Below, one piece after another: positions 4,939 to 42,074 of a DNA stretch of 64,000 nucleotides; the stretch's first letter is position 1, and the number at the start of each line of letters is the position of its first letter. Made by a program: the position numbers and the translations under genes. Under the pieces are notes generated by a model. That model searched no databases. It saw only the letters and a program-made list of their open reading frames with translations, and had not been told where the DNA came from. Origin of the DNA: Thiocapsa sp. UBA6158 (lineage in GTDB: Bacteria > Pseudomonadota > Gammaproteobacteria > Chromatiales > Chromatiaceae); assembly GCF_002423035.1 (NCBI RefSeq), contig NZ_DIUM01000070.1, positions 48,056 to 112,055 on the forward strand, given 5' to 3'.

Positions 4939-5016
4939 CGCAGGTGCCTCTTGTTCCCGGTATCGGGGGTTGACTGTTGGCACGGCCCGGTCTCGACATC
5001 GCCCGGACCAAGGTGT

Positions 5017-10918: not shown

Positions 10919-11079
10919 GCTTTCTTTGCGCCCCGGATCGACCTTACGCTGGCCCATCGAGGGCATCGTCGACGCGGTTCAGTTCATGAAATTCTTGACC
11001 GACCGGCATTGCGCAAACGTCGTGGGCGGGAATGACGCGGGACAGGCACCGAATCGGCTCCCGCCGCCGCGGAACCGGC

Positions 11080-27693: not shown

Positions 27694-27941
27694 CCTCCAG
27701 GTACTGTCCGCCGAGCGGACTCGAGCATTCCGCAGTTTGACCATGATCGTGGGGATGGTTGCACAGAGGACATCGATGAGGGTGCCGGTATCGGGGCGCG
27801 CACGTACACTACCCGCCAGGCTAGACCAGTGCGTTGACAAGGCGGACACTCACGGAGCGAGGCGCGATCGCATCCCCTCCAAAGAGCAAAACCCTTTCCG
27901 GTCCTTTATGCCCTTCATGGTTCGCATTAAAAGGCATCGGT

Positions 27942-28939: not shown

Positions 28940-28959
28940 CGGCGATCCCGATCTAGCCT

Positions 28960-29470
28960 TTATGAGGCGATGCCTGTGCTGTCGAGCAGACCCGACGTCC
29001 CGGCCGTCCCGAGATTCAAGGCATAACGGCTATGCTTGCGCTGCCCGGTGCGCACGAGCGCGCCCTTGGCGACCAGGTTCTGGAGGTCGCGGGTCGCGGT
29101 AGCGCGCGACGTACGGGCGATGGCGATATCGCTTTCGGCGCTCAAGCCCCCGACGAAGCCCTCGGGCCCCGCCCGGAACACCCGGGCGAGCCCCTTATCC
29201 CGGCGTGCGTTCATCTGATCCCGAAGCCGGTCGTAGAGCTTGGCTTTGCCGATCAGAGCGATGACCCGCGCGCGTGTAATCCAGCGCATCCAGGACGGCA
29301 TGGGAGAAATAGCCCAGCCAATCGTCGATGCGATTGACCTTGTTCGCCCGCTCCAGTGCGGCGTAATACGCCTTTTTGTACCGCTCGACCCGACCGTTGC
29401 CGTCCTCGAACGGGTGAATCGGGGCGAAATAGAGGTGGGCAATACCCGCACGTGTCAGGGTCGGCAGCGA
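28960..29470 (-). pseudogene. Fic family protein remnant
   Basis: The Fic motif HPFEDGNGR reads in one frame (about 29395-29420). It is followed directly by RYKKAYYAALE, which implies an internal deletion. A frameshift near 29270 leads into the winged-helix tail (ARTSRATATRDLQNLVAKGALVRTG). The N-terminal half is missing. Confidence 0.7.
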
Positions 29471-29654
29471 GCGCTTGCCGGTCGGGGCGCTTGCTGATGC
29501 CGAGCAGGCGCTCGCGCCCGCCGGTGGCGTGCTGTCGCGGCACCAAGCCGAGCCAGGCGGCCAGCGCGCGCCCGTTGCCGAACAGCGTCGGATCCTCTCC
29601 CACCGCCGCCGACAAGGCCGTCGCGCACTGCGCGACGATGCCCCGGATCGTCAT
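29471..29654 (-). mobile_element. IS110-family transposase C-terminal fragment
   Basis: The translation ...ALSAAVGEDPTLFGNGRALAAWLGLVPRQHATGGRERLLGISKR matches the conserved Transposase_20 block of IS110 transposases. There is no N-terminal catalytic part and no inverted repeats. It abuts the truncated Fic gene. Confidence 0.65.
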
Positions 29655-29772
29655 CAGGCGCTGTGCTGCTCCGTGACCTCGGTTGACGATGTTCGATCAC
29701 ATCGCTCATGGTGCCCGCTCAGGGCTCGTTGGGGGAGCGGGGCGGACCATCCCAATACCCTACCGGCCGAGC

Positions 29773-29961
29773 TTATGAATAACGCCGGACGATGCTGTCG
29801 CCCTCGCGGCGCATCAAAACCCCGTCGGCATCGATCTCGAGGTCACGGGGCAACCGCACGGCCTGATTTCTCCCGTTGCGGAAGAACCGGGCAGTCCCTG
29901 ACTGAACAGGGTCCGATTCAGATGCTGAAGGTTGGCGGTCACTTATGGATGCCTCTTGCAC
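29773..29961 (-). pseudogene. VapB/AbrB-type antitoxin remnant (no cognate toxin)
   Basis: ARFFRNGRNQAVRLPRDLEIDADGVLMRREGDSIV matches the SpoVT/AbrB antitoxin core (FxNGxSQAVRLP). It has an aberrant N-terminal extension and no PIN toxin ORF downstream. Confidence 0.55.
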
Positions 29962-30099
29962 CTATGCGAGACGCATAGGTTTACGTCCAGCGCCTCCGCG
30001 GCGCGGACGCGACCTTTCTGTTCTCAGCCACATCTCGCCTCTCCTCAAGGCCCGATCGCCGAGGATTCCGGGCGCGATTTGGGCGCCGTTCAGCCACAC

Positions 30100-30131
30100 A
30101 AACAAAAGCCGGCACAAGGCCGGCTTTTGAG
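30100..30131. terminator. bidirectional intrinsic terminator (ancestral terminator downstream of tRNA-Gly)
   Basis: The GCCGGC-ACAAG-GCCGGC hairpin (30108-30124) is flanked by an A-tract (ACAAACAAAA) and a T-tract (TTTTGA). Confidence 0.6.
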
Positions 30132-30210
30132 CTTTTGAGCTTTTGAGCTTTTGAGCTTTTGAGCTTTTGAGCTTTTGAGCTTTTGAGCTTTTGAGCTTTT
30201 GAGCTTTTGA
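30123..30210. repeat. perfect tandem octamer (GCTTTTGA) x 11
   Basis: Counted directly: 88 nt with no mismatch. The first unit is the 3' stem end plus T-tract of the terminator hairpin. The array ends 6 nt from the tRNA-Gly fragment. Confidence 0.95.
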
Positions 30211-30216
30211 TAAATT

Positions 30217-30263
30217 TGGAGCGGGAAACGAGATTCGAACTCGCGACCCCAACCTTGGCAAGG
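30217..30263 (-). repeat. att site: duplicated 3' 47 nt of tRNA-Gly (distal island junction)
   Basis: tggagcgggaaacgagattcgaactcgcgaccccaaccttggcaagg is identical at all 47 positions to 42000-42046. Identity ends abruptly at 30264. Confidence 0.9.
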
Positions 30264-30356
30264 AGATTGCTACCTTATTGACCACGGCGATACACGGAAA
30301 GATTAGCACGCGAGCGGCTCGGAGCAACACGGAATTACGCGGACCCTCCGCGAATG

Positions 30357-30488
30357 TGCGCAGAAAACTAAGCCCCTCTCTCCCTGGAAATGTCGGGAAG
30401 TCGGGAAGGTAGGGTTAACCCATTGCCTTGATTGAGAAAATACCTTCCCGACAGGGCTTTTCGGGTCGGGAGGATAAGTCGGGAAGGT
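30357..30488. repeat. iteron cluster A; about 130-bp copy of 36767-36896
   Basis: Near-identical to the segment downstream of the replicase gene, with a handful of mismatches. GTCGGGAAG cores at 30392, 30401 and 30478 (forward) and 30443-30452 (reverse), plus a degenerate copy at 30465. Confidence 0.85.
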
Positions 30489-30497
30489 TGGCGACCT

Positions 30498-30599
30498 GAT
30501 CGGAACCTGAAGGCAGCCTGTCCCAAAACGGAAGCGCTTCCGTTTTGGGACAGATCAGAACCTGAAGGAGGTGTTGACCGAAACTCACGTGAGTTTCGG
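30498..30599. repeat. palindrome / direct-repeat block at the island end
   Basis: A 16-nt direct repeat GATCRGAACCTGAAGG (30498-30513 and 30553-30568) flanks a perfect 36-bp palindrome, CTGTCCCAAAACGGAAGC|GCTTCCGTTTTGGGACAG (30518-30553). A perfect 22-bp palindrome, CCGAAACTCACGTGAGTTTCGG, follows at 30578-30599. Confidence 0.9.
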
Positions 30600-30624
30600 C
30601 GGAGGGCTAACTACAGGGGTGTGG

Positions 30625-30906
30625 TCAGCTCGGGTCGAGTTGGGCGGTTTGATCTTTTAGGCGATCTTCGAGCGCGTCTAAGTGTTGGCGCTCGTTGGAT
30701 GAAATCGCGTCCATCAACCGCGCCACGGCCGCCAATGACAAGCTCTCATCGCTGGCGATAACGCCTCGTTCCCGAAGAGCAGACTCGAACGCAGAGACCA
30801 GTTCCAAGGGACTATCTATGTCATCAAACCGGCCTGAATCCGACATCGGAATCAGTACGCTTAACATCCGCGGGACTGCATCGGGGTCGTTGACCTTGTT
30901 ACTCAT
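30625..30906 (-). CDS. hypothetical protein (island cargo)
   Basis: 93 aa from MSNKVNDPDAV. A GGAG lies 9 nt upstream of the ATG at 30906. Acidic. No family recognised. Confidence 0.5.
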   Translation of the reverse strand: MSNKVNDPDAVPRMLSVLIPMSDSGRFDDIDSPLELVSAFESALRERGVIASDESLSLAAVARLMDAISSNERQHLDALEDRLKDQTAQLDPS

Positions 30907-31031
30907 CGATCGGGCTCCGGGTGTGCCCGGGCATGCCGGGCGGGTTGGCGTGCGTCTGGATCCGAACCACGCAAGGGACTGGATCGGCAGACCCGCCACG
31001 CGGGCGGGTCTCGGGTTGAGCTCGAATCAGC

Positions 31032-31271
31032 TCAGACCAGGACGGCGACCCCGAAAGCGTCGGGGCCTTCAGCGTTGGCGATGTGTCCGCAGTCGAACCC
31101 CTCGCCTTCCGGTGCGACCCGGTAGCCAGATTCGGACACCAGCAGGACGGCGGATCGCCAGTCGAGCGCGGATCCGATCCGCTGCAAATCGCCCATATTG
31201 CCCTCCGCGTCGAACGGGACGGCGACCACGTCGCGCGGGGTGCCGTCGAGATAGGATTGATCGTTGCTCAT
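31032..31271 (-). CDS. hypothetical protein (island cargo)
   Basis: 79 aa, MSNDQSYLDGTPRDV.... Strong SD (AAGGAG) upstream of the ATG at 31271. Confidence 0.55.
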   Translation of the reverse strand: MSNDQSYLDGTPRDVVAVPFDAEGNMGDLQRIGSALDWRSAVLLVSESGYRVAPEGEGFDCGHIANAEGPDAFGVAVLV

Positions 31272-31319
31272 TCGTCCTTGCTCCTTGAGGTTGCGCCCGG
31301 CCGATGCCGGGCGGGTTGG

Positions 31320-31544
31320 TCAGTCTTGCAGGTCCAGCGGATCGAAGTCTTCTGCTCCGCCCTCGAATCGCGCGAAGGCGATGCACTGCTCGTCGGTCGC
31401 GTCATGCCCTCCCGGCCTGAAGAAGTTGCCCGCGAAGACGAACGCCCGGCCGTTGCGCTCGAACATTTTGAAGGATGTCGCAGGCTTGCCCCGCAGATTC
31501 ACGCGGGTCTTGTCCTCGATCCTGTAGTTCTCCACGTCGGTCAT
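31320..31544 (-). CDS. hypothetical protein (island cargo)
   Basis: 74 aa, MTDVENYRIEDKTRVNLRGKPATSFKMFERNGRAFVFAGNFF. SD GAGGG. ATGA overlap with the upstream ORF. Confidence 0.55.
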   Translation of the reverse strand: MTDVENYRIEDKTRVNLRGKPATSFKMFERNGRAFVFAGNFFRPGGHDATDEQCIAFARFEGGAEDFDPLDLQD

Positions 31545-31726
31545 GACCTTGCCCTCATTGCTCCGATCTGCGAAAGAAACTCGATGTCTTCCCGTGCCGG
31601 GTGATCCGGTGCGCAGAAAATAAGCGCGATGCTTGCTGAAAACAGCCGATCCGCTACCTCGTTCCACCGTTCCAGGTGCCATACCCCGCCGACGATCGCA
31701 TCTATCATGTGCTCGCTGTCGCTCAT
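31541..31726 (-). CDS. hypothetical protein (island cargo)
   Basis: 61 aa. SD GAGGAG 8 nt upstream. ATGA overlaps at both ends. Confidence 0.5.
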   Translation of the reverse strand: MSDSEHMIDAIVGGVWHLERWNEVADRLFSASIALIFCAPDHPAREDIEFLSQIGAMRARS

Positions 31727-32160
31727 GCCGCCTGCTCCTCAGCGGCGAGCTGGTCGACGGCCGTGATGATTGCCGCCTTCGCCTTCAGTCGGGCGGCGGC
31801 GATGCGCTCCTCCCGAGCCAGCGCGGCGGCTTGCTCGGCTTCGCGTTCGGCGATGCTGGCGTCCAGTGCGATGCTCAACAGACCGGCGGCGACTTCCGCG
31901 GCCGTCTCCCCCGTATCGGCGGCGATGCGGGCCAGGGTCGTTTCGCGTTCGGCGGTCGCAACCTCGTTGAAGGCGTCGGCGAACTCGAGTAAGCGGCTCG
32001 ACAGCAGGTGTGCCGCAGTCGCGATGCCTGACAGGCGATCGCGCTCGAAAGGTGTGTCGTCCAGCCCGCTTTCTTCGATGTCGAGCGTCCGGTTCAAGCC
32101 TTGCAGCGCCCACGCCAGTTGCCAAAGCTCACTCATGCCGCTGAATTGTGTTGCGCTCAT
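31723..32160 (-). CDS. hypothetical protein, Ala/Glu-rich helical (island cargo)
   Basis: 145 aa. SD GGAGG 7 nt upstream. ATGA overlap with the upstream ORF. Confidence 0.55.
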   Translation of the reverse strand: MSATQFSGMSELWQLAWALQGLNRTLDIEESGLDDTPFERDRLSGIATAAHLLSSRLLEFADAFNEVATAERETTLARIAADTGETAAEVAAGLLSIALDASIAEREAEQAAALAREERIAAARLKAKAAIITAVDQLAAEEQAA

Positions 32161-32477
32161 GAGCTCGCCTCCATCGGGGTCAATCCTGCATGGGCTCGGG
32201 TCGCCAAGCGGGTCAGTTCGGCGGCGCGACCGTCCGGGGCGGTCGTGACCATGTGCAGGATAGCGTCATGCCATCGGTGCGCGGCGACGACATCGGCGGC
32301 GCGCACGGGGTCACAGCGTAAGCCGTAGCGCACGACTCCGAAGAGTTGATGTGACAGGGCGATGCCCTTGTGAGCGAAGTCATCGCCGTCGATCGGCTTG
32401 CCGCAGCGCTGCATCTCGCCGACGAGATCGCGCGCGAGGAGGATGATGGATCGGCTCGGCTGGCGTTTACCTTCCAT
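32157..32477 (-). CDS. hypothetical protein (island cargo)
   Basis: 106 aa from MEGKRQPSRSIILLARDLVGEMQRCG. SD GGGAGG. The longer track ORF (to 32651) lacks coding character. Confidence 0.5.
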   Translation of the reverse strand: MEGKRQPSRSIILLARDLVGEMQRCGKPIDGDDFAHKGIALSHQLFGVVRYGLRCDPVRAADVVAAHRWHDAILHMVTTAPDGRAAELTRLATRAHAGLTPMEASS

Positions 32478-32715
32478 GTCGGCGACCTCCCAAGATCGAA
32501 CGGCGGCGGCGAACGCCGATAAACCGCAGCGCGGCTTCGATGCGAGCCAGTAGGGCCCGGGCCTCGGACAGCTCCCGGCCTTGCATGCCGGACAGGCACC
32601 AGGCGACGGACGCGCGAAGAGTGCGCAGTGTGCGATGGTCTCGACGCGCAAGGGCGTCTGATGTCATGCGGTGCCAAGTCGGCACGCGCAGTGATATATC
32701 ATGGCTGGTAGCCAT
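32467..32715 (-). CDS. hypothetical basic protein (island cargo)
   Basis: 82 aa. SD GGAGG 7 nt upstream of the ATG at 32715. 11-nt overlap with the next ORF. Confidence 0.45.
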   Translation of the reverse strand: MATSHDISLRVPTWHRMTSDALARRDHRTLRTLRASVAWCLSGMQGRELSEARALLARIEAALRFIGVRRRRSILGGRRHGR

Positions 32716-32795
32716 TGCCGAACCTCCGTTACAGGTTGGTGATGGTCAGGCATCCTCGGGCGTTGGCGCGCCCCTGGATGCCGATCTCCTCTACT

Positions 32796-32981
32796 TCACT
32801 TCGTCTTCGCGGTTCTCTTCCCCTCCCTCAGTTTCTTGCAGATGTCTCGGACCAGCGGTCTCGACTCCGCAGGCACCCACTCCGTAACCGACACGAACCC
32901 TTCGGCTCGCATCCGATCCCGCCATTCAGCCATGCGGACGCGGGTCGGTTTCCGTTTCTCGGTATCGGTAACATGTGACAT
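32796..32981 (-). CDS. DUF3018-like (MazE-family antitoxin-like) small protein
   Basis: KPTRVRMAEWRDRMRAEGFVSVTEWVPAESRPLV resembles the DUF3018 pattern (RVRxxRxRxRAxGLRPVQIWVPD). No MazF-like partner is adjacent. Confidence 0.5.
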   Translation of the reverse strand: MSHVTDTEKRKPTRVRMAEWRDRMRAEGFVSVTEWVPAESRPLVRDICKKLREGKRTAKTK

Positions 32982-33334
32982 ATGCCGAGTGTAACAGCGT
33001 GCGGACGGAAGTCTACATACCGTTCGTCGGTTTTTGCGCTCGGCGATGGATCCTCAAGGGTGCGCGCAAGGTGGCGTCGGCGCTGGTGATTTCTGCGGGT
33101 GCAGTCGGAAGGCATGACCCGATCCAGGTTGGGTTCGGTCTCTCCCTGAATCTCGCTTTCCGCTTCGGTCTCGACAGGCGATTCAGTGGATTCAGGCGTT
33201 GCTTCCTGGGTGTTTTGGGGTTCAGGTACTTCTTCAGTGTCGGTTTCTTTGATGTAAGAAACCTCATCAAAGTACCGATCGCCCCATGACTTAACGTCAA
33301 GACGGAAGCGCTGTGGGCTGCGGCTGTCGCACAT
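32828..33334 (-). CDS. hypothetical acidic protein (uncertain; conflicts with 32796-32981)
   Basis: From MCDSRSPQRFRLDVKSWGDRYFDEVSYIKETDTEEVPEPQNTQEATPESTESPVETEAESEIQGETEP. Locally low GC. The 3' third overlaps the DUF3018-like ORF in another frame and looks non-coding. Confidence 0.3.
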   Translation of the reverse strand: MCDSRSPQRFRLDVKSWGDRYFDEVSYIKETDTEEVPEPQNTQEATPESTESPVETEAESEIQGETEPNLDRVMPSDCTRRNHQRRRHLARTLEDPSPSAKTDERYVDFRPHAVTLGICHMLPIPRNGNRPASAWLNGGIGCEPKGSCRLRSGCLRSRDRWSETSARN

Positions 33335-33654
33335 GTCCAAGGCGTCGGAAGGCGTGACCTGATCCAGGAGGGGTTCGGGTCTCCTTGCGGATAAGGAGAG
33401 CGGACATCGGCGAACCCATGCGCAGATGTCGCGGCTCAAGGTTGAGCCGTGAGATTGCCCGGGCTCACTGCGCAGCGCTGCGCAGTGAGCGCAACCGGGG
33501 CACGGCACGGGTCAAGCGGGCGGTGCGGTCATCCTGAAGCGCGTAGAGCGGGCGCGCTTCGCGTTGACGGCCGCGGGCGGGGGCGGTGGGTCCAACATGC
33601 CGGCCAGGACCGTTGCGCGCTGCAGCGGCTTCCGGGTGGTCGCAGGCTTGCGGA

Positions 33655-33897
33655 TCAAGGCGGCGTATCGGGGCATCGGTCAATCCTCTCGGCTCGGCGG
33701 GGCGGTGGGACCAGGCGCAGATGTGACCGGCGGGCGGCGGCGCGGGCCTCCCGGTCGAGCCGGGCCTGCTCCGCTCGGAACCAGGACCGGAACAGCTCGA
33801 CGGCGGTGTCTTCGTCGGTCATGCGCACGTCGAACCCGCCCGAGTCGTTGGCGGCGAGCAGCAGCCCGTCAAGGTGCAGGGTCAGGGCGGGGTTCAT
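33655..33897 (-). CDS. hypothetical protein (island cargo)
   Basis: 80 aa from MNPALTLHLDGLLLAANDSGGFDVRMTDEDTAVELFRSWF. Weak SD. 29-nt overlap with the upstream ORF. Confidence 0.35.
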   Translation of the reverse strand: MNPALTLHLDGLLLAANDSGGFDVRMTDEDTAVELFRSWFRAEQARLDREARAAARRSHLRLVPPPRRAERIDRCPDTPP

Positions 33898-34189
33898 CGG
33901 CGTCTGTTCGTCGTGCGCGGTGCGCGGCGGCCTCGATGGCGGCCGCTCGGGTGATGGTCTCGAGTGTGCTGTAACGGAATCGACATCCAAGGCACTTGCG
34001 GCGGCGCCTGATGGCGTCGGCGCCGGCTTGGCGGGTCTCCAGTACTGCCGTGTGTTCAGACCCGCAGAGGGGGCAAGATGCGCTCAATGTACGGCCTCGG
34101 TGGTGGGTGCCGACTTTGCGACCGGGTCGGCGCCGGGAGGCCGCGGAGGAAGTCGCGACCTCGCAGCCGTCCAAAACTGCCCGCGCCAA
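33869..34189 (-). CDS. NrdR-type zinc-ribbon protein lacking the ATP-cone (Ogr/Delta-like size)
   Basis: CPLCGSEHTAVLETRQAGADAIRRRRKCLGCRFRYSTLE parallels the NrdR N-terminus (CPFCxxxDTKVIDSRxxxxGxxIRRRRxCxxCxxRFTTFE). A more likely start is TTG 34087, which has a GAGG SD and gives 72 aa beginning MSASCPLCG. Confidence 0.55.
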   Translation of the reverse strand: MARAVLDGCEVATSSAASRRRPGRKVGTHHRGRTLSASCPLCGSEHTAVLETRQAGADAIRRRRKCLGCRFRYSTLETITRAAAIEAAAHRARRTDADEPRPDPAP

Positions 34190-34192
34190 GAA

Positions 34193-34660
34193 TCAGGCAG
34201 CGATCCGGCCGAGATCGGGCGCCAAAACAACAGTAGGATCCGCATCGCCGCGTCGAACGATCGGCGTCGGCGAGCTGCGAATCGCGCGCTCTTCCTCGAT
34301 TTCCAGGCTACGCAGCTCCGCGTCGAGCTCGGCGAGGCGGCGGCGCCGGTCTGCGGCGCTGATGCCGGGCTCGGGATGTGCCTCGAAGGCAATCGCGGCG
34401 AGCCGTGCGGCGGTGCGCTCGAAGTCCAGCGCGGCGACGATCGAAAGCACGTCGATCCTGGATGCGGCGTGACTCGTCAAGTCGGTTTTGCCTTTGCGCA
34501 GCCGGGAGGGGTTAAGGATGTCCCGGCCGCGCTCGGCAAGGTGCTCGACCTCGGCGGCGATGCTTTCGGCCGCTTCGGCTTGGGCGGGCCACTCGCGTTC
34601 CACGGCTTTGCGCTCGGCTTGCAGGGCGGTGATGCGGTCGCGGATTTTCTCAATGGTCAT
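34193..34660 (-). CDS. hypothetical coiled-coil protein (island cargo)
   Basis: 155 aa from MTIEKIRDRITALQAERKAVEREW. ATGA overlap with the upstream ORF. Confidence 0.5.
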   Translation of the reverse strand: MTIEKIRDRITALQAERKAVEREWPAQAEAAESIAAEVEHLAERGRDILNPSRLRKGKTDLTSHAASRIDVLSIVAALDFERTAARLAAIAFEAHPEPGISAADRRRRLAELDAELRSLEIEEERAIRSSPTPIVRRGDADPTVVLAPDLGRIAA

Positions 34661-34917
34661 GCGATGGTTCCGATGATGTAGATGTTGCTGTTGTCGCTGC
34701 GGCGCTTCGCCGGCAGGCGTGCCCACGCGCGACCTCGCAGCCCGTCGCGGCGGAAGATGTCGCCTCCGCGCACCCATAGCCCACGCGCTGTCGGCGCCGG
34801 TTCGCTGTCGCTGAAAATCACCTCGAAGCCGTCCACGCCATCGCACTGACACGCGAAATCGAGCGAGGCGCCGGCGATCTCCGTATAAGCCGCAGTCAGG
34901 GGCACGGGGTCAGCCAT
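34657..34917 (-). CDS. hypothetical protein (island cargo)
   Basis: 86 aa, MADPVPLTAAYTEIAGASLDFACQCDGVDGFEVIF. 8-nt overlap upstream and ATGA downstream. Confidence 0.45.
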   Translation of the reverse strand: MADPVPLTAAYTEIAGASLDFACQCDGVDGFEVIFSDSEPAPTARGLWVRGGDIFRRDGLRGRAWARLPAKRRSDNSNIYIIGTIA

Positions 34918-35314
34918 TGGCGATGCGCCCGGTGTTGTCCTCCAGCCATTCCTCGCACGCGGTCAGCAGCTTGATTTGCGGCTTCCAGGCGGCTTGCGCG
35001 GACTCGATCGCCGTTTCCAGCTCGGCTAGGCGCTGCTCGACCATCTTCAGGTCAATTCGGGCGCCGGCTAGCTTCGGGTCTTCGGGCGTGCCGGGCACAC
35101 GAGGATTGCGCTGCAGGTCCACTCCCCATTGGGCGATGTACCGCGCAAGGTCTTGGCGCTCTTGGTGCAGCGCGAGGCGTTCGCCGATCAGCCCGGACAG
35201 GGCAGCGTGCGCGCCCTTGGCGGCGCGTCGCAGCTCCCGCAAGCGCATCTCGTAGGGCTCGAGCTTGGCGGCTCGGGCTTGCTTCTGAGCAAGCGTCAAT
35301 GGTGCCGAGATCAT
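34910..35314 (-). CDS. hypothetical helical protein (island cargo)
   Basis: 134 aa. SD GGAGG 9 nt upstream. ATGA overlap with the upstream ORF. Confidence 0.5.
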   Translation of the reverse strand: MISAPLTLAQKQARAAKLEPYEMRLRELRRAAKGAHAALSGLIGERLALHQERQDLARYIAQWGVDLQRNPRVPGTPEDPKLAGARIDLKMVEQRLAELETAIESAQAAWKPQIKLLTACEEWLEDNTGRIANG

Positions 35315-35703
35315 CGCTGAAAGCCTCCGCGATCCGGCCGCACAATCCGCGATCGCGGCGCGCTCATGTCCACGTCGCGCGCGGGTCCACCGGTGCGGCC
35401 TGACGACAGGGCTTTTTCGAGTGCTTCCATCGCGCGCATTTGCGCGTCAGTAGTCCCGGACGCAGAGGGGCCGGCCTGGTTGGCGCGGTGCGGCTCGTTG
35501 GCGGCGATCTGCGCGAGGGCTTCGTCCATCTCGGCTTGCTGCTCGGCGGACATCTTGCGCGGCGTTGGATAGTGGCCTGCGGTGATCTCGGGGCCGATCG
35601 CTGCGCCGACGGCGAGCGCGACCGGCCGATGTTTGATGATGCTGTTGTCGATCATGTTCGTGTCCGGTGTTTGGAGTGCGGACATTTTCAGCCGACGAAT
35701 CAA
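35311..35703 (-). CDS. hypothetical protein (island cargo)
   Basis: Up to 130 aa. The TTG at 35703 overlaps the upstream stop (TTGA). Alternative ATG starts at 35685 and 35655. Confidence 0.45.
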   Translation of the reverse strand: MIRRLKMSALQTPDTNMIDNSIIKHRPVALAVGAAIGPEITAGHYPTPRKMSAEQQAEMDEALAQIAANEPHRANQAGPSASGTTDAQMRAMEALEKALSSGRTGGPARDVDMSAPRSRIVRPDRGGFQR

Positions 35704-36293
35704 CCATCAAAACCGGGTGTTTGGTGTTCGGCGATAATGCGCTTCAGGTGCGTCGCGGATGTCGGAGCCGGTGCGCTGCTCAAGGCGAACCACAGCTCGC
35801 ACTGCAGAGGGCTAAGGCGTGCCGGTGGTTGTGCATGGTGCCGGGACCATCGCCAGGTGGACGCCTCGAACATCCCGATCTCGCTCGCCAGCTCACGGAT
35901 GCGCGCGGGGGTAGACGTGTCTTCGTTGAACGGGACCAGGGCGAAGGCGCGGCGGAGGTGCCGATCTCGACGGGAAAGGCGCTCGCGGGTCGCAAGGCTC
36001 GCGATGCCGCGGCCGCGGATGCCGAGACCCTCATCCAAGGTCGCCACAGCTCCGGTGGCCGCTAGGCGCAGCCCATCGGCGAGGAAAGCCGCGGCCTCCG
36101 GGTCGGTCCGGGCGGTCGCGGTGATCGCGCGGCGCAGCATGGCGAGCCCTTCATTCTGTTTCATATCGACAATCTCGATCCATAGCCAGTTGACATCGAA
36201 CATATCTGCTGCCGAGACCCTAAGCGACTGAAATCCTGTCGAAAACCGGGGCTCGAATTCCCCGCGGTTACGGCGGGGGTGCCGGGGTCCCAT
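35700..36293 (-). CDS. hypothetical protein (island cargo)
   Basis: Up to 197 aa. The start is uncertain (ATG 36293, 36203 or 36164). The coding-like part begins around MKQNEGLAMLRRAITATART. Confidence 0.45.
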   Translation of the reverse strand: MGPRHPRRNRGEFEPRFSTGFQSLRVSAADMFDVNWLWIEIVDMKQNEGLAMLRRAITATARTDPEAAAFLADGLRLAATGAVATLDEGLGIRGRGIASLATRERLSRRDRHLRRAFALVPFNEDTSTPARIRELASEIGMFEASTWRWSRHHAQPPARLSPLQCELWFALSSAPAPTSATHLKRIIAEHQTPGFDG

Positions 36294-36372
36294 CGCTGCT
36301 GAATCTTCCGAGAGAACATGCGGTTGCGAAACTCAGCCGAGCCCGTTGGATGCTGCATCGAAAGCATGACCC

Positions 36373-36747
36373 TCAAAACGCGGAAGTCAGCAGCCGGCCG
36401 ACGTGGTTCATGGTGTCGAGATCCACGTCGGCGGCGAACCGAACGGCCGCCCTACCCTGCTCATCTACGGCGACCTCCGTAACCGCGTCGGCGAGATCCT
36501 CCACCTCTAAGCAGAACCTCAGCTCGTCCACCGTCCACGGTTCCCGGCGCGTCACGGATCCAGGGCGAGCCTCACGCGGGTTTCGCGTCTGCTCGCTCTT
36601 GGCCCACTTCCGCGCGAACTTCATGCAGGTGGTTGCCTTCCCGATGACGAAGACCTTCCGAGCGGTCACACAGTAGTTCGTCGCGCTGGTGAAGGACTGA
36701 CAGTCGCAACAGCGGACCTGAGGGCGGTCATCATCCTTGCGGGCCAT
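36373..36747 (-). CDS. hypothetical Cys-containing protein, first gene after the iteron region
   Basis: 124 aa, MARKDDDRPQVRCCDCQSFTSATNYCV...TTCMKF. Strong SD GGGAGGG upstream of the ATG at 36747. Confidence 0.55.
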   Translation of the reverse strand: MARKDDDRPQVRCCDCQSFTSATNYCVTARKVFVIGKATTCMKFARKWAKSEQTRNPREARPGSVTRREPWTVDELRFCLEVEDLADAVTEVAVDEQGRAAVRFAADVDLDTMNHVGRLLTSAF

Positions 36748-36766
36748 GCCAAGCCCTCCCGGTGTG

Positions 36767-37011
36767 TGTGCAGAAAACTAAGCCCCTCTCTCCCTGGAAA
36801 TGTCGGGAAGTCGGGAAGGTATGGTTAACCCATTGCCTTGATTGATAAAACGCCTTCCCGACAGGGCTTTTCGGGTCGGGAAGGCAAGTCGGGAAGCGTG
36901 CCGTTACCCTTCCCGACTTTTGCAGCCTTCCCGACTTCCGAAAAACCATGTCGGGAAGGTCTAACCCCACGCCAGCCTTGAGCAAAACAGCAACCTTCCC
37001 GACTTCCCGAC
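36767..37011. promoter_or_regulatory. iteron cluster B (candidate replication origin) immediately 3' of the replicase gene
   Basis: Ten perfect GTCGGGAAG cores. Forward copies are at 36802, 36810, 36875, 36888 and 36950. Reverse copies are at 36854, 36909, 36927, 36995 and 37003. An 18-nt inverted pair, GTCGGGAAGTCGGGAAGG (36802-36819) and its complement (36994-37011), brackets an AT-richer core (TTAACCCATTGCCTTGATTGATAAAA). Confidence 0.7.
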
Positions 37012-37030
37012 TTTTCACAGATAACACCTA

Positions 37031-39883
37031 TTAACTTTCATGGAGAGCGGGGGAGGCTTCGTGTTCAGGCGATCCGCTCGGAAGCAACTGCCCTAGAGGC
37101 ATCCGCCACACACGATCGGGGGAGATGTTGGCCCGGTTATGCTTGTGCCCGATGTCGCGCCCCGAGCCCCGCTGCAGGAATCCGCGTTCGGCGAGCGCTT
37201 TCGCCAGCCGGTGTTGCGAACGCGGCGCCCCTGCTCCCTGGTCTCTGGCGAGCTTGGCAATCGCCGTATACGCGGCGGCTGGACTGAGCCAAAGCTGCGG
37301 GCCTAGGTCGTTGGCTTGGTCGACGAAGTAGCCGATCGGCTCCCCGAGTGCCTCGAATCGCTGCTCTACGCGCGGCTCCCCGTCTGGTCCCTCATTGCGG
37401 TGCATGTGAATGGTTGTTTTCCAGCCCAAGAGGTGTGATCGGGATACGGGCGGTTTCGACGCCGGCACTTGTGCTGCGTCGATGACGTGGACGCGACCGA
37501 GAGAGAATGCCGCCCTGAGTAGTTCCATCGCGCGAACGGCATCCTCCGAGGTTTCCTGCAGGTCGGCTTGAACCCTCGCTTGGTCCAGCAAGGCGCTTTT
37601 GCACCGCGATTCGAGATCGGCGGCGCGCTCCCGAGACAGCGCCCCGATGTCGAGCGCGAAGCGAAAGAAGACTTCGATCGAGAGACGCATTCCCGCCAAG
37701 TTGGCCGGGATGCGCTCATGGTCCCGAAGCTCCGAGCCGACTTCGGCGCGAAGCTCTTCGTAGCGGATCGGCAGTTCGGCTTCGAGCTGCTCCGCACGGG
37801 AGGCGATCCACCGCAGATATCCGGACATCGCGGCGGCGTAGATTCCCGCTCTGGCGTGACGCTGGCACTCGGTAAGGATGTCCAGCTCCATCGTCCCCGG
37901 GGTCAAGCTGAGAATCCACATTCGCGCCCGCAACGAACGCCCGGCCGGTAGGTCTTCACCGGATGCCGAGACCATGCCTCTCGGGTAGTAGGTCCGACGC
38001 AAGCGGGTGTCGGCGGTCATGCGCCCCCGGCCGGCTTGGTTGGCGGCGCCACGAAAGACGCGATCGGCCTTGATGCTCATGGCCTGTTGATCGCTCGCGG
38101 TCCCTTGAGGGTTGTAGTCGTCGATCTCGAACAAGGCATCCTTGATGCCGAACGCCTTTTTCATCATGGCGTTTTCGGTACTGGACCAGCTTTCGGGGAA
38201 GGACCGCGCATTCCAGCCCTGCCCATAGTGGGCCATCGCCAGGGCGGCGATCTCGGACTTGAAGGTCCCCGACCGGCCGTCTACGAAAACCCCGCAATCC
38301 TGCCGATACCATCCGCCGAGCGGCGGGCCGTAGATCCGCGCCAACTGGACGGCGCCCACGCCGTCGTTAACGAGCCGCATCTGGAGCAGCGATTTCCGCA
38401 CCGCGTCAACCAATGCCGGCGGTTCCGGTGGGTGCGGGAGGTGGTAGTTCATCAGGTTGTCTTCGAGCTCGACATCAATGTCGTCTCGGGCTCCATTCGC
38501 CGTGATCGCGCCTCCCGCGTGCAGGTAAACAAGCTCGCCGCCGATCTTCCTCCATCCCGTGTGGGTGTAGATTTGGCGTGTCACCATGTCTCGGCTGTAG
38601 GTCTGGATCGCCGCCCGCAGATGGTCACGGACGGATGACCCGGCCGTGACGACGTATTGATGACCGAGCTTGTTCGTGACCCACGCCATCCCGCTGAACT
38701 GTGCGGTCAGGATCTCCACGTCCACCGTTGAGACGCCACCCGCGGAGGGCCGATAAACCTTGAGCTGCGTTCGATGCTCGGTCTCCACGCCGTCGTCATA
38801 CAGGCGCTGCTCGGCGACCACGGCCGAAAAGTTGGCGAGCGGTATCCGCTTCTCGGTCGTCTCCCTGGATTCGCCGCGGCCTGTCGTGATGGTCCGCAAC
38901 TGGTAGAAAACCCCTTTAGACCAGACGTAGGGGCCGATCTGTTCATCCTCCGGGACCTCTTCGGGCTCGGGCTCCGGCTCCGCTGCGGGTGGCGGTCGTT
39001 CCTCCGCGTGACGGGCGCGCGGGTTCGCCCATCCGCACTTTTGCGCCTCAGCGAAGACAGCGCGGTAATCCAGCTCCGAGCCCTGGAAGCTGCGCCACTT
39101 GGCGGCGGCTTGTGCCGCGTCGAACTTCTCGGATGTCGCGCTCCAAGCGAGCCACAAGCCCCGGCCGATGTTGCCGTAAGCCGAGAGCGCGAGCCCCATC
39201 CGAACCCACGTTTCATAGGGGTCGGCGTCGATGGTAAAGAGGGCTTCGCGTAGCTCGGAGATTTGGCGCGGCTCAAGGGCATGCCGAGGTGTTGCTGTGG
39301 GCTCCGCTTCGCGACCCGATTCATGGCCGCGATGCAAAGGCGTCAGGGTGTCGCGAACAAAAGGGGCAAGGTCCTCAAGGTCGCCCCCGAGGGCCTCGCC
39401 GGTAACGGTGAAGTAGCGACCCCTGCAATACGCCTCGATCCCGGTCTTGTTTGAGCCCAAGCCCTCGAACGCGGAACCGTGGCCGATCGCGTGCACTCCC
39501 TTACCGGACGGCGACCGCTCCACGTAGCCCGGTAGGATGTCGATCAAAGCTGCAAGCTCGGACCGCTCCGCCGTGTTGTCTAGGTCGATCCCTTGCCAGA
39601 CGAGTCCGTCATCATCCGGACCGAGCGCAAATCCGAGCCCAGCGTATCCGCCACGCGCGACGGCGTGGACGGCTTCGTCCATCGTCACCAGGCAAGCCAG
39701 ATCCTCCGGACTGTCGAGCTTTCCGGATCGCTTCTTACCGTTGGCGTAGTACGGGACCTTTCGCGGCTTCGGTTTGGCCGGTATCAGCTTCCACACCAGC
39801 CAGCGCCGCGCGGCCTGCATGGTGGTGGGAATCTCAAGCTGGAGTGTTTCCAGGGGTGGCGGTGTCGGGGCGTCGTCACGCAT
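37031..39883 (-). CDS. replicase: bifunctional Prim-Pol + PriCT-2 + C-terminal P-loop (helicase-like) protein
   Basis: Prim-Pol motifs are present: RRWLVWK...KVPY, GIDLDN, SPSGKGVH, IEAYCRGRYFTVTG. A PriCT-2 block follows (WVRMGLALSAYGNIGRGLWLAWSATSEKFDAAQAAAKWRSF), then a Walker-A-like GRSGTFKS at about residue 570. Confidence 0.85.
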   Translation of the reverse strand: MRDDAPTPPPLETLQLEIPTTMQAARRWLVWKLIPAKPKPRKVPYYANGKKRSGKLDSPEDLACLVTMDEAVHAVARGGYAGLGFALGPDDDGLVWQGIDLDNTAERSELAALIDILPGYVERSPSGKGVHAIGHGSAFEGLGSNKTGIEAYCRGRYFTVTGEALGGDLEDLAPFVRDTLTPLHRGHESGREAEPTATPRHALEPRQISELREALFTIDADPYETWVRMGLALSAYGNIGRGLWLAWSATSEKFDAAQAAAKWRSFQGSELDYRAVFAEAQKCGWANPRARHAEERPPPAAEPEPEPEEVPEDEQIGPYVWSKGVFYQLRTITTGRGESRETTEKRIPLANFSAVVAEQRLYDDGVETEHRTQLKVYRPSAGGVSTVDVEILTAQFSGMAWVTNKLGHQYVVTAGSSVRDHLRAAIQTYSRDMVTRQIYTHTGWRKIGGELVYLHAGGAITANGARDDIDVELEDNLMNYHLPHPPEPPALVDAVRKSLLQMRLVNDGVGAVQLARIYGPPLGGWYRQDCGVFVDGRSGTFKSEIAALAMAHYGQGWNARSFPESWSSTENAMMKKAFGIKDALFEIDDYNPQGTASDQQAMSIKADRVFRGAANQAGRGRMTADTRLRRTYYPRGMVSASGEDLPAGRSLRARMWILSLTPGTMELDILTECQRHARAGIYAAAMSGYLRWIASRAEQLEAELPIRYEELRAEVGSELRDHERIPANLAGMRLSIEVFFRFALDIGALSRERAADLESRCKSALLDQARVQADLQETSEDAVRAMELLRAAFSLGRVHVIDAAQVPASKPPVSRSHLLGWKTTIHMHRNEGPDGEPRVEQRFEALGEPIGYFVDQANDLGPQLWLSPAAAYTAIAKLARDQGAGAPRSQHRLAKALAERGFLQRGSGRDIGHKHNRANISPDRVWRMPLGQLLPSGSPEHEASPALHES

Positions 39884-40094
39884 GGGTGAAGAACTCCCGC
39901 GTCACCGTAACGCTGTACCGGGCTCGCCGGCCGTCGCGCAGACGCACCGTAACGCCAGACACGGCGACGGTCTCGGGGAGAACGCCGGTCGTCTCGGCGT
40001 ATTTCATGAGGGCATTCTGCAGCCCGGATCCGAGCGATTGCCTCAGCGGCGCGTGTCGGTTCCGGGGCGGTTTTGGCAAGGTTGGGGTGGGCAT
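39876..40094 (-). CDS. hypothetical small basic protein upstream of the replicase
   Basis: 72 aa from MPTPTLPKPPRNRHAPL. SD GGAGG. 8-nt overlap with the replicase start. Confidence 0.45.
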   Translation of the reverse strand: MPTPTLPKPPRNRHAPLRQSLGSGLQNALMKYAETTGVLPETVAVSGVTVRLRDGRRARYSVTVTREFFTHA

Positions 40095-40290
40095 GTGATC
40101 GGCCTCCAAGCATGTGGACGGCCAACCGCGCAAAGACGGGAGCAGACACGACAGATGCACCGCGGGCGCGGTATCATCATCATGCCGGTGCACCTTTGGC
40201 TTTGATCGGTCGGTGCTTAAACGTCGCGGTCGGACTTGCAGGTCCTCCGCGAACGGCTCACAACATAATTGATCGAGGCGATAACATCCA

Positions 40291-40331
40291 GACCGACCGG
40301 GGCGCAATCCCGGCCGGTCTTTCTGTTTCCG
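40291..40331 (+). terminator. terminator-like hairpin oriented on the plus strand inside an all-minus-strand island
   Basis: GACCGACCGGGG-CGCAAT-CCCGGCCGGTC (one mismatch) followed by TTTCTGTTTCC. It lies in a 268-bp ORF-free gap (40095-40362). Confidence 0.4.
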
Positions 40332-40362
40332 CTCCATCGGTCGCTCGTCTTGGCGCGCCGGC

Positions 40363-40869
40363 TCATAGCTGGCCACCTTCCCTGATCCGCTCGAGCGCAT
40401 CCCGAACAAGCTCTTCCGCCAGGTCGTTCGCGGCGGATCCGCGCGCGCTGGCCATGGCTCGAAGGGCGTCCGCCTCGCTGGGCTTCATCCACACACTCAG
40501 CTCTACAACGCCTTCAGGATCCGCTACAGCTTCCGGCGGAACCGCCGGAACCGTTTCTTTTTTGCCACCCAACTCGACAACGCCATCGGGCTCGGTCGCG
40601 GGGGCAGGTGCGTTTTGCAGATCCTCCGCTTTCTGCGCTTCGTCGCGGATGATCTCCAGGACCTTCGTGGCGAGCCCGGGACCGCACAGAGAGCCGCTCG
40701 CCCCGGGACGAGGGATATATTCGCCGCTGGCTACAAGTTCCGCGCGATGCTTCCGAATGAACCACTCGAACGACGAGTAGCTCTTGAAGATCGAGCCGCC
40801 TTTCTCGGCGACCCATTGGCGCATCGTTCGCCAATCTGACAAATCGACGTGAACGGGTTGGGATTGCAT
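40363..40869 (-). CDS. hypothetical protein with C-terminal ribbon-helix-helix-like segment
   Basis: 168 aa. SD GGAGG 7 nt upstream. The C-terminus LSVWMKPSEADALRAMASARGSAANDLAEELVRDALERI looks CopG/Arc-like. There is an internal repeat EPDGVVEL / DPEGVVEL. Confidence 0.55.
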   Translation of the reverse strand: MQSQPVHVDLSDWRTMRQWVAEKGGSIFKSYSSFEWFIRKHRAELVASGEYIPRPGASGSLCGPGLATKVLEIIRDEAQKAEDLQNAPAPATEPDGVVELGGKKETVPAVPPEAVADPEGVVELSVWMKPSEADALRAMASARGSAANDLAEELVRDALERIREGGQL

Positions 40870-41024
40870 GAACTGGCCTCCGAAAGTTCGCCACCACGGC
40901 GTGTTTCAGCAGGCTAAGTTGTTTTTCATACTGTTCAAGCTGCTTTTGCTGAAACCGACCCGAAGCGTCGTGGAACCCCTCACTTCGTCGGTCGGTTTCT
41001 TGTCGGGCGGGTGTTGCGATGTCT

Positions 41025-41906
41025 CTAGCCGAACACGCGATCCACCACGTCGAGCTTGTCGGATGCGTTGGCGTGCATGTAGCGCGCGCTCGCGCTCAAG
41101 GTGCGGTGTCCCATGACGGCCATGATGGCGGCCTGATTGACCCCGGAGGTTGCCATCGCATGCCCGCAGCCGTGGCGCAGTTGATGGAAGTTGCGACCCG
41201 GCAGACCCGCCTCGGTGCAGACGCGAATCCAGAGACGGCGGAACCCGAACGGGCGCCCCTCGCTACCCTCGAAGACCAGGGCATCCGGTTGCTTCCCCGG
41301 CAGCAGGCGCAGTGCATCGGCCGCACGCGCGGAGAGTGCGGAGACCTGGGGCCGGCCGTTCTTGGTCTTCAGTACGGTGATGGTGCGGCGCTCAAGGTCC
41401 ACGTCGCCCCATCGAAGGGTCATGAGATTGCCGACGCGCAACCCGGTGTGAAAGGCAACCAGGACCAGGGCAGACAGCTTGCCCCATCGGGTGTCGAGTA
41501 GACGGGTGACGGCAAGGATACGCTCGACCTCCTCCGCGCGAAGGTATCGGTTCGGGTCGGCGGGCTCGGGGGATTTCTCCACGCCGCGCGTCGGGGGCAC
41601 ATGGGCACGGGGCAGCAGACGCAGGCGTCGAGCGTATTTGAAGACGGAGGCGAGTTGCGAGACGTAGCGGTTATAGGTGGCGCCGGACATGGGCGCGCCG
41701 GCCGGCTCGGTGGCTTGACCGCGGCGGGGCACCAGGCGCCCGCGTTCGGCGAGCCGAACAAGCGCAAGGTCCACGTCGTCGGCGGTGATCTCGGCGAGAT
41801 CCCGAGAGCCGAGCGACTCATCCCAAAACGCGAGACGGGCCAGGGTTCCCCGGTCGAATTCGCGCGACGCGACGAACGCGTCAATGGTCACGGAAAGTGT
41901 AGGCAT
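41025..41906 (-). CDS. int: tyrosine-type site-specific integrase
   Basis: 293 aa. The catalytic pattern is present: AFHTGLRVGN (R), HQLRHGCG (HxxR), MGHRTLSASARYMH (H...Y). It lies 93 bp from the tRNA-Gly 3' end. Confidence 0.9.
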   Translation of the reverse strand: MPTLSVTIDAFVASREFDRGTLARLAFWDESLGSRDLAEITADDVDLALVRLAERGRLVPRRGQATEPAGAPMSGATYNRYVSQLASVFKYARRLRLLPRAHVPPTRGVEKSPEPADPNRYLRAEEVERILAVTRLLDTRWGKLSALVLVAFHTGLRVGNLMTLRWGDVDLERRTITVLKTKNGRPQVSALSARAADALRLLPGKQPDALVFEGSEGRPFGFRRLWIRVCTEAGLPGRNFHQLRHGCGHAMATSGVNQAAIMAVMGHRTLSASARYMHANASDKLDVVDRVFG

Positions 41907-41999
41907 AAAACTTGCTCCGAGTGCAAAACGATCAGAACCGTGAACTGATCGCCGTGGCGGCGCACTTTCGGAAGCAATTTCAAGCGCTTAGGGTTGAAT

Positions 42000-42046
42000 T
42001 GGAGCGGGAAACGAGATTCGAACTCGCGACCCCAACCTTGGCAAGG
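42000..42046 (-). repeat. att site: 47-nt core within the intact tRNA-Gly (proximal island junction)
   Basis: Identical to 30217-30263. Confidence 0.9.
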
Positions 42047-42074
42047 TTGTGCTCTACCACTGAGCTATTCCCGC
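42000..42074 (-). tRNA. tRNA-Gly (anticodon GCC)
   Basis: The reverse complement is GCGGGAATAGCTCAGTGGTAGAGCACAACCTTGCCAAGGTTGGGGTCGCGAGTTCGAATCTCGTTTCCCGCTCCA. It has a 7-bp acceptor stem, D loop, anticodon loop CTTGCCAAG, T arm GTTCGAATC and an encoded CCA. Confidence 0.95.

Follow-up and report, generated by a model that had tools for sequence, protein, structure and literature searches.

The 64,000-nt stretch of DNA analysed here (hereafter the window), from Thiocapsa sp. UBA6158, carries an island of 11,783 bp that is integrated in a tRNA-Gly gene and flanked by perfect 48-bp attachment (att) repeats. Sequence comparisons with related islands directly place this element in a family defined by a conserved module of small genes, orf167-orf114-orf134-orf86-orf155-ZnR. 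The island is very likely an intact, integrative and self-replicating element with a P4-like replicon logic. We favour the view that it is a helper-phage-dependent satellite of a new family, a reading to which we give a probability of about 0.45 and in which we infer the transfer step.

Most phage satellites described so far are from enterobacteria, Firmicutes, and vibrios and, to our knowledge, satellite search tools detect only relatives of these. If the satellite reading is correct, the island would be an intact example in an environmental phototroph and would stand for a satellite family with new hijack proteins, whose stable core is the hijack module instead of the integrase or replicase. 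orf167 and orf155 could be used as a search handle, and the link to capsid genes presented below is testable. If the element is instead mobilised by conjugation or plasmid-like, the module would mark a family of cryptic islands.

Conservation of the small-gene module

Two islands, L088 (Thiocapsa sp. CP073760) and L090, were found via a search with orf155 (coordinates and identities of individual genes are given in Table 1). Both keep orf167, orf134, orf86, orf155, and ZnR in the same order, the block being syntenic with 38-77% identity; orf114 is also present in L088. In addition, L090 has orf80, orf54, RHH61, orf82, orf106, and, as the only one of the distal small open reading frames (ORFs), orf74 (63% identical). 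Their integrases and replicases are unrelated to those of the window. L088 is inserted in a tRNA-Arg gene, measures 10,884 bp, and encodes AlpA, an integrase of the P4 type and, as separate proteins, a Toprim primase and a DUF927 helicase. L090 is inserted in a tRNA-Leu gene, measures 11,737 bp, and encodes a 353-aa integrase and a replicase of RepB_primase/PriCT_2/DUF5906 architecture. Since islands with unrelated integrases and replicases keep the module, it is the module that defines the family. On these comparisons, the genes after rep are not cargo and form a conserved syntenic module common to islands with different integrases and replicases. A preliminary description of this DNA, made from the letters alone, had expected variable cargo around a fixed core of integrase, replicase, and iterons; the reverse was found, with the genes after rep conserved and integrase and replicase exchanged in L088 and L090. 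Its guess that the island represents a distinct family from a poorly sampled host group stands.

Exchange of the replication genes can also be followed in closer relatives. L057 (1-5054) is 93% identical in DNA to the window only over orf72, rep, and the first part of the putative origin (40259-36890), and its flanks are unrelated to the window, with genes for AlpA and a ribbon-helix-helix (RHH) protein upstream and a different ORF downstream. Hence, the rep-ori cassette recombines between islands. L005 shares with the window the integrase (88% identical), the att site, and the rep-ori core, and has different downstream genes. In Thiohalocapsa marina, the island is located in a tRNA-Thr gene and encodes a P4-type integrase. 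Taken together, these three cases indicate that the rep-ori core and the integrase act as exchangeable cassettes. Despite the swapped modules, sizes stay within a narrow range, at 11,783, 11,737, 10,949, and 10,884 bp in the four islands whose ends were mapped. Full-length relatives of Rep (47-96% identical) are confined to metagenome assemblies and T. marina; genome and metagenome scans with Rep otherwise returned only relatives of its C-terminal domain, 30-40% identical and from many phyla, and no further such islands.

Within the module, the last gene encodes a stand-alone zinc-ribbon protein (ZnR) of the NrdR type (PF22811 Zn_ribbon_NrdR, 3.1e-13; N-terminus of TIGR00244, 1.8e-8), which is probably a DNA-binding regulator. 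The preliminary description had called it NrdR/Ogr-sized; the NrdR side is confirmed and the match to Ogr_Delta (0.0085) stays below the cut-off. This ORF begins with TTG, its codon-position GC profile is flat, and gene callers miss it in identical metagenome contigs; its Pfam match and its 77% identity in L090 argue that it is a real gene. orf134 has only weak, sub-threshold Pfam matches of coiled-coil type. The AlphaFold2 (AF2) model of the helical orf155 protein, with a predicted local distance difference test score (pLDDT) of 83, gives only generic coiled-coil matches in the PDB.

The first module gene, orf167, belongs to a family without a Pfam entry, for which a full HMMER scan retrieved 137 cluster representatives of about 140-190 aa. 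Its AF2 model, built on an alignment of 85 sequences, is confident and shows seven helices with a pLDDT of 91.3. In every readable context (n = 8: the window, L005, L054, L088, L090, L092/L093, L094, and L095, with six replicase architectures), the island is of the integrase(-AlpA)-replicase kind and its replication module is immediately followed by the orf167-family gene. In L092 and L094, the orf167-family gene overlaps the start of a gene encoding a fusion of a ClpP protease with a capsid protein (Phage_capsid_4, 4e-52 and 2e-58). At 33-35% identity, these fusions resemble those of Pseudomonas phages of the LESphi2 type, and tape-measure-like genes come next; neither a portal nor a terminase gene was found in L092 or L094. 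The two islands (L092 2630-15800, L094 5900-16300) are small integrase(-AlpA)-replicase islands encoding the capsid fusion, and may represent a capsid-encoding satellite type distinct from capsid-forming phage-inducible chromosomal islands (cfPICIs). The overlap in L092 and L094 is all that directly connects the module with phage morphogenesis.

We tentatively propose, as a possibility short of a probable conclusion, that orf167-orf114-orf134-orf86-orf155-ZnR may be the helper-hijack module of an undescribed satellite family, present in Chromatiaceae and probably beyond, and made of proteins without counterpart among solved structures or predicted viral ones. The orf167 family would then be a marker linking capsid-less islands with capsid-encoding ones of the L092/L094 type, and integrases and at least six replicase architectures would have been freely exchanged around it.

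The small-gene block might also be an unrecognised anti-phage system riding on a mobile integrase-Rep chassis, which would be compatible with a satellite lifestyle. Indeed, satellites and islands borne by tRNA or tmRNA genes often carry defence genes (PMC10085698, PMC12595487) and, in one context, a related rep gene adjoins genes for a type I restriction subunit and a Schlafen-like protein. This function appears improbable, as PADLOC, run on the 17 unknown ORFs and Rep, matched none of them, the module consists of small helical proteins without an enzymatic domain, and its position and orientation are those of a core operon rather than of a variable hotspot.

Integration, replication, and relationships with known elements

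The 48-bp repeats at 30216-30263 and 41999-42046 have no third copy in the window, and thus delimit an element of 11,783 bp. Its interior matches the island that the preliminary description had drawn at 30264-41999. The terminator hairpin of the tRNA-Gly gene (30103-30129) is now outside the island, 11.8 kb away from the tRNA. The island is present in roughly 39 metagenomes, and at least 24 metagenome contigs carry it, nearly identical and each time integrated at the same site. One of the contigs, L084 (11,898 nt), was considered as an excised circle and rejected, being colinear with the chromosome.

All candidate island genes are on the minus strand and several of their start and stop codons overlap. 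Apart from the integrase and Rep genes, the longest ORFs, with 226 aa or less, could not accommodate a capsid, a portal, or a large terminase protein; besides the zinc-ribbon protein and the RHH candidate, there are about 15 small ORFs. The inventory first given (integrase, Prim-Pol/PriCT-2/P-loop replicase, iterons, small ORFs) stands. Its negative part was reproduced too, with no match in the island to capsid, portal, terminase, tail, lysis, relaxase, coupling-protein, type IV secretion system (T4SS), or defence genes in Pfam, PHROGs, NCBIfam, and PADLOC scans. The remaining small ORFs have no match in these four resources, relaxed thresholds included. A degraded prophage remnant, to which an integrase beside a tRNA gene and primase matches to PHROGs could have pointed, is effectively refuted: the scans gave no remnant of structural, lysis, or terminase genes, the att repeats match perfectly, the densely arranged ORFs show no decay, and this compact organisation is seen again in several genomes.

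The integrase, a tyrosine recombinase of 293 aa, reaches Xer-type NCBIfam families only below the cut-off and does not have the arm-binding domain of P4 Int, in agreement with its first description as a short Xer-like enzyme rather than a P4-type one. The position of orf168, next to it, suggests a regulator or an excision factor. The N-terminal 80 aa of orf168 are 69% identical in L005, and an AlpA and RHH pair occupies the same position in L057. A reading by eye of its C-terminus as RHH-like received no support from Pfam or other profiles.

The replicase, Rep, combines primase and helicase-like domains. Its N-terminal PrimPol domain matches structures of the NrS-1 primase-polymerase in the PDB (1e-24 to 5e-29) and is followed by PriCT_2 (9e-12). 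The C-terminal region covers about 560 aa and has an ATPase core that can be aligned with a genuine DUF927 protein; G536, G539, K542, D588, and D589 do not vary. The DUF927 family, to which the SCCmec Cch helicase belongs, is also among the ATPases that are fused to archaeo-eukaryotic primases (AEPs) in integrated elements (PMC5862659). Residues ~389-944 of Rep (37031-38720) are about 29% identical to proteins of Rhodococcus linear plasmids that are annotated as “telomere-binding protein” and encoded 8-10 kb from the plasmid ends, and this C-terminal helicase-like region has further similarity to proteins encoded on small plasmids of Streptomyces and haloarchaea.

Directly downstream of rep, ten exact copies of the 9-mer GTCGGGAAG form a dyad-symmetric array (orientations + + - + + and then - - + - -). 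A half-copy of this array is found 6.3 kb away, near attL; it contains five iterons at 30392-30486, four of them exact GTCGGGAAG and one with a single mismatch. Outside both arrays, only one exact copy occurs in the 64 kb. Iterons stand directly after rep in each island with a related Rep, and their sequence varies, with GTCGGGAAG in L057 and L005, GTCGGAAG in L001 and L054, and GAAGTGGGAAAT in L003. The same position with differing sequences in islands with related Reps is what is expected of a cognate Rep-origin pair. In L088, an iteron peculiar to this island, GACGCTACCG, forms three arrays, and one of these is located within the beginning of the DUF927 gene; the repeats of L088 lie at 2026-2100, 4873-4947, 6849-7103, and 11055-11377, and a tandem array with a period of 95 nt is found beside the distal att site. 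Thus, multi-site repeat arrays recur in this island family.

In iteron plasmids, arrays at two sites are a classic layout for copy control, which counts in favour of a cryptic integrative plasmid. Such an element would alternate between an integrated and a plasmid state by means of its integrase and of Rep with its iterons, would have no dedicated helper, would spread vertically or by generalised means, and would use its small genes for maintenance or regulation. This corresponds to class iii of Kazlauskas et al. (2018), in whose survey AEP primase-helicase fusions are typical of integrated mobile genetic elements (MGEs), many of them without phage or conjugation genes (PMC5862659). The relation of the Rep C-terminal region to actinobacterial and archaeal plasmid proteins, a sub-threshold match to an IncQ-type antisense RNA inside the island, and the fact that the island is always integrated and essentially identical across samples go in the same direction. 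However, no partition, toxin-antitoxin, or plasmid-maintenance gene was recognised in the island. Furthermore, a search of 72,556 plasmids gave no close relative, Rep reaching at most 30% identity over its C-terminal half and orf167 and orf106 having no match. Finally, a plasmid would leave unexplained why a six-gene block is kept while integrase and rep are swapped, why island sizes are narrow, and why relatives of orf167 are coupled to a capsid gene. We regard a cryptic plasmid as unlikely.

With respect to P4 (NC_001609), the preliminary description was right in placing the island, at about 11.8 kb, in the same size range (11,783 vs. 11,624 bp). The two elements are alike in their insertion at the 3' end of a tRNA gene, in a multidomain primase-helicase serving its own iteron origin (a putative one in the island), and in a small zinc-ribbon protein. 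In annotated P4, crr, with ten type-1 iterons, directly follows alpha beside attP, and ori, with six more, is 4.7 kb away. Hence, both elements have iterons at two sites, one just downstream of the replicase gene and the other kilobases off, one array being beside an att site. P4-type integrases and AlpA are found in relatives of the island, AlpA being present in L057, L003, and L088. The two-site layout and the function are analogous; Rep and P4 alpha are not homologous (best E 0.2). The island has an AEP PrimPol instead of a primase of the P4 alpha type, a short Xer-like integrase, and genes that are all co-oriented; homologues of Sid, Psu, Delta, epsilon, cI, and alpha are all missing from it, its host belongs to the Chromatiaceae and is not an enterobacterium, and no helper is known. 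As already noted from the sequence, none of its proteins is of the Sid, Psu, Delta, or Cpm type, according to profile scans and the comparison with P4.

Of the core features by which SatelliteFinder defines P4-like elements (Int, Psu, Delta, Sid, an AlpA-type regulator, epsilon/Ash, and alpha), an integrase (PF00589) and site-specific att sites (the 48-bp repeats in tRNA-Gly) are present; no AlpA, MerR, or Stl regulator was matched among the island proteins, no epsilon similarity was found in the window, and the psu-delta-sid operon is absent (best E 0.23 for the island proteins against Sid, Delta, and Psu, nothing with phmmer). Phage-inducible chromosomal islands (PICIs) of Gram-negative bacteria, including “Type C” of SatelliteFinder, resemble the island in the order of integrase, regulator, primase-replicase, and small-gene operon, in their size of about 10-15 kb, and in site-specific integration. 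The integrase and the primase-replicase are indeed in the canonical PICI order. Unlike PICIs, this copy of the island has no AlpA, MerR, or Stl regulator, and it does not pass as Type A or Type B. By the published definitions, the island is neither a P4-like element nor a Type A or B PICI (PMC10085698). De Sousa et al. noted that sets of integrase, AlpA, and primase may be undescribed satellites or other MGEs (PMC10085698). cfPICIs and virion-encapsidated integrative mobile elements (VEIMEs) are likewise of small size, integrate, and encode AlpA, an integrase, and a primase/helicase (PMC9618062), and the phage capsid protein encoded by the distant orf167-bearing islands L092 and L094 is a trait of this kind; unlike them, the island in the window has no capsid, portal, protease, or terminase gene, and IMG/VR yielded no match to the island, its Rep, orf167, or orf155.

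The architecture of Rep is found among cryptic integrated MGEs, in which AEPs of the PrimPol-PV1 type are fused to PriCT-2 and to a DUF927, DUF3987, or VirE ATPase, exactly as in the island, and which likewise integrate in tRNA genes with att repeats and are devoid of genes for phage particles or conjugation (Kazlauskas et al., 2018; PMC5862659). Both defining traits of their class iii are present, namely the AEP-PriCT-P-loop fusion and an att-integrase pair without conjugation or virion genes. Class iii is a catch-all without a defined lifestyle, and the island family is delimited within it by its non-replicative module and the orf167 marker.

MGIVchHai6 and MGIVflInd1 are small, integrase-bearing, relaxase-less islands with a conserved DUF927-type protein, as is the present one (PMC7449626). 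By analogy, the island could be an integrative mobilisable element moved by a co-resident conjugative plasmid or integrative and conjugative element (ICE) through an oriT that mimics the one of the helper. In this case, the module genes would be for factors of mobilisation or regulation, and the oriT would correspond to the conserved non-coding repeats or the palindromes. DUF927-type proteins are syntenic in relaxase-less islands moved by IncC plasmids and SXT/R391 ICEs (PMC7449626), the ATPase core of Rep aligns with such a protein, conserved non-coding repeats and perfect palindromes are candidate cis sites, and no phage hijack marker was found. We nevertheless find this mode of transfer rather unlikely. 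Relaxase, MobI-like, coupling-protein, and T4SS genes were matched in no island of the family (no relaxase or Mob match in the present one), mobilisation by conjugation does not need a full primase-helicase with an iteron origin, relatives of orf167 are coupled to capsid genes and not to transfer genes, and orf167 and orf106 are without match in the plasmid set. MGIVchHai6 and MGIVflInd1 themselves differ in having binding sites for a helper activator, oriT, and mobI, and in a DUF927 protein that carries no primase fusion and is not needed for their transfer; descriptions of these islands mention no iteron origin.

The satellite reading and the observations that weigh on it

In the satellite reading, the Xer-like tyrosine integrase would recombine the 48-bp att core, orf168 perhaps assisting or regulating this step. 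Rep would bind the 9-bp iterons that directly follow rep, open the origin with its dyad symmetry, prime, and unwind, and the five-iteron half-copy beside attL would be a second Rep-binding site, by analogy with P4 ori/crr. The third module is the conserved operon from orf167 to ZnR, followed by the RHH-like protein encoded behind a repeat-bearing non-coding block. A helper phage would trigger excision and replication of the island, the conserved module would act on helper gene expression or on head assembly, and the ~11-kb island DNA would leave the cell in particles made by the helper.

The conservation of the module together with the capsid-coupled relatives of orf167 makes us lean toward a phage-linked lifestyle. 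The narrow range of island sizes, the P4-like iterons at two sites, AlpA and P4-type integrases in relatives, and the absence of relaxase and T4SS gene matches also argue for a satellite. The satellite-like layout proposed at the outset is therefore retained for its inventory and size, to which the module and the capsid-linked relatives are added; it found no backing in a hijack marker, by sequence or by fold.

Several observations weigh against the satellite reading. No known hijack protein was detected in the island by sequence or fold. The structure searches that the preliminary description had called for were run with the models of orf167 (PDB and BFVD) and orf155 (PDB) and gave no match with E <1. 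Neither a capsid-morphogenesis gene nor a small terminase, at least one of which is expected of a PICI, appeared in Pfam or PHROGs or in the fold comparisons of these two modelled proteins. Against all P4 proteins, the island proteins gave a best blastp E of 0.11 and nothing with phmmer. No relatives were retrieved from IMG/VR with the Rep alignment, the orf155 alignment, or orf167, and orf167 has no match among 50,697 phage records. The window contains no helper prophage, and no attP junction, empty site, or excised form was seen among the 24 metagenome contigs. The size argument depends on four islands, and the capsid link on relatives about 30% identical from two island types only. Moreover, DUF927-type proteins are also conserved in relaxase-less islands mobilised by conjugation (PMC7449626).

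Other features of the island and its surroundings

The features of the island are listed in Table 1.

Table 1. Features of the island and its integration site (positions in the window)
Feature	Position	Strand	Remarks
attL	30216-30263	none	exact 48-bp copy of the 3' part of tRNA-Gly
Distal iteron half-copy	30355-30486		~90 bp from attL; 132 bp, 94% identical to 36765-36896 (left half)
Two perfect palindromes after the last gene	30518-30553 (18+18 nt), 30579-30600	none	see text
Distal small ORFs (145, 61, 74, 79, 93 aa)	30625-32160	minus	gene calls of identical contigs; no family match
orf82 and orf106	32157-32715	minus	90% and 94% identical in L090
RHH61, putative RHH/MazE-like DNA-binding protein	32796-32981	minus	PF11455 7.7e-4, below cut-off; 79% identical in L090
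Conserved non-coding block, candidate operator or other cis site	32982-33511		upstream of RHH61; also in L090 and at the end of L005
orf80 and orf54	33512-33897	minus	52% and 62% identical in L090
ZnR, stand-alone NrdR-type zinc-ribbon protein, last module gene	33869-34189	minus	77% identical in L090, 47% in L088
orf155, helical	34193-34660	minus	C-terminal motif RRGDADP; 63% identical in L090, 52% in L088, 31% in L001
orf86	34657-34917	minus	overlaps both neighbours; 40% identical in L088, 38% in L090
orf134	34910-35314	minus	4-nt overlap with orf114; 48% identical in L088, 47% in L090
orf114	35311-35655	minus	43% identical in L088
orf167, first module gene	35700-36203	minus	64% identical in L090, 55% in L088, 31% in L054 and L005
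orf124, Cys-rich	36373-36747	minus	not kept in relatives
Main iteron array, putative ori	36802-37011		directly downstream of rep; GTCGGGAAG x10, exact
Rep, 950 aa, WP_296700366.1	37031-39883	minus	PrimPol, PriCT-2, and DUF927-like P-loop helicase/origin-binding region
orf72, in the rep-ori core	39876-40094	minus	overlaps the rep start codon; 83% identical in L057, 77% in L005
orf168	40363-40869	minus	no match in Pfam, PHROGs, NCBIfam
Tyrosine integrase, 293 aa, Xer-like	41025-41906	minus	Pfam PF00589 Phage_integrase 1.2e-24; phrog_1 1e-45
attR	41999-42046		3' part of tRNA-Gly(GCC); identical to attL over 48 bp
tRNA-Gly(GCC), integration target	42000-42074	minus	ARAGORN; Rfam tRNA 71.9 bits

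The RHH-like protein of the preliminary description has its candidate in RHH61, which is conserved in L090 and whose MazE-like assignment stays below the cut-off. The non-coding block upstream of RHH61 contains a perfect palindrome of 28 nt (33463-33490) and two copies of a 22-mer, GGATCGGGTCAYGCCTTCCGAC, at 33104-33125 and 33344-33365. GGATCGGGTCAYGCCTTCCGAC also occurs twice in L090, and near-copies are found at the end of L005. GGATCGGGTCAYGCCTTCCGAC was considered as a cos or pac site of a helper; its 16-nt core gave 54 single matches in IMG/VR, about the estimated chance level, none of them reaching the full motif. The palindromes at 30518-30600 could serve as a terminator for both directions or as a cis site. 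No LexA-box pattern (CTGT-N8-ACAG), as would be expected for SOS control, occurs in the window.

The sub-threshold RNA match mentioned above concerns RF00043 (R1162/IncQ antisense RNA; 32708-32783, minus strand, 37.5 bits vs. a gathering threshold of 55, E 0.0017). It spans the ribosome-binding site and the start codon of orf82 and recurs in the nearly identical region of L090 (11803-11878), where it is not independent support because the sequence is the same. A link to IncQ was discarded, as no IncQ-like DNA or protein similarity was found, plasmids included.

The island lies in ordinary chromosome, with glnS, glgX-like, aroC, and tolC-like genes on the left and pgsA, uvrC, ilvC, ilvI, and proS on the right, as recognised from translations. 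Neither a prophage nor a conjugative element was found within the window. The GC content of the island is the same as that of its flanks, except for a dip at 30-31 kb. To the left of attL, the stretch 27800-30100 is without any long intact gene and probably consists of debris from older insertions at tRNA-Gly. It contains a fragment of an IS110-family transposase (29253-29654, Transposase_20, 2.9e-11); other fragments, read by eye as remnants of AlbA_2, Fic, and VapB, were not confirmed by Pfam. Just outside attL (30103-30210), 11 tandem copies of GCTTTTGA continue from the displaced terminator of tRNA-Gly, growing out of the 3' arm of its hairpin. The number of copies varies among otherwise identical metagenome contigs, L082 being shorter by 40 nt, that is, by five units.

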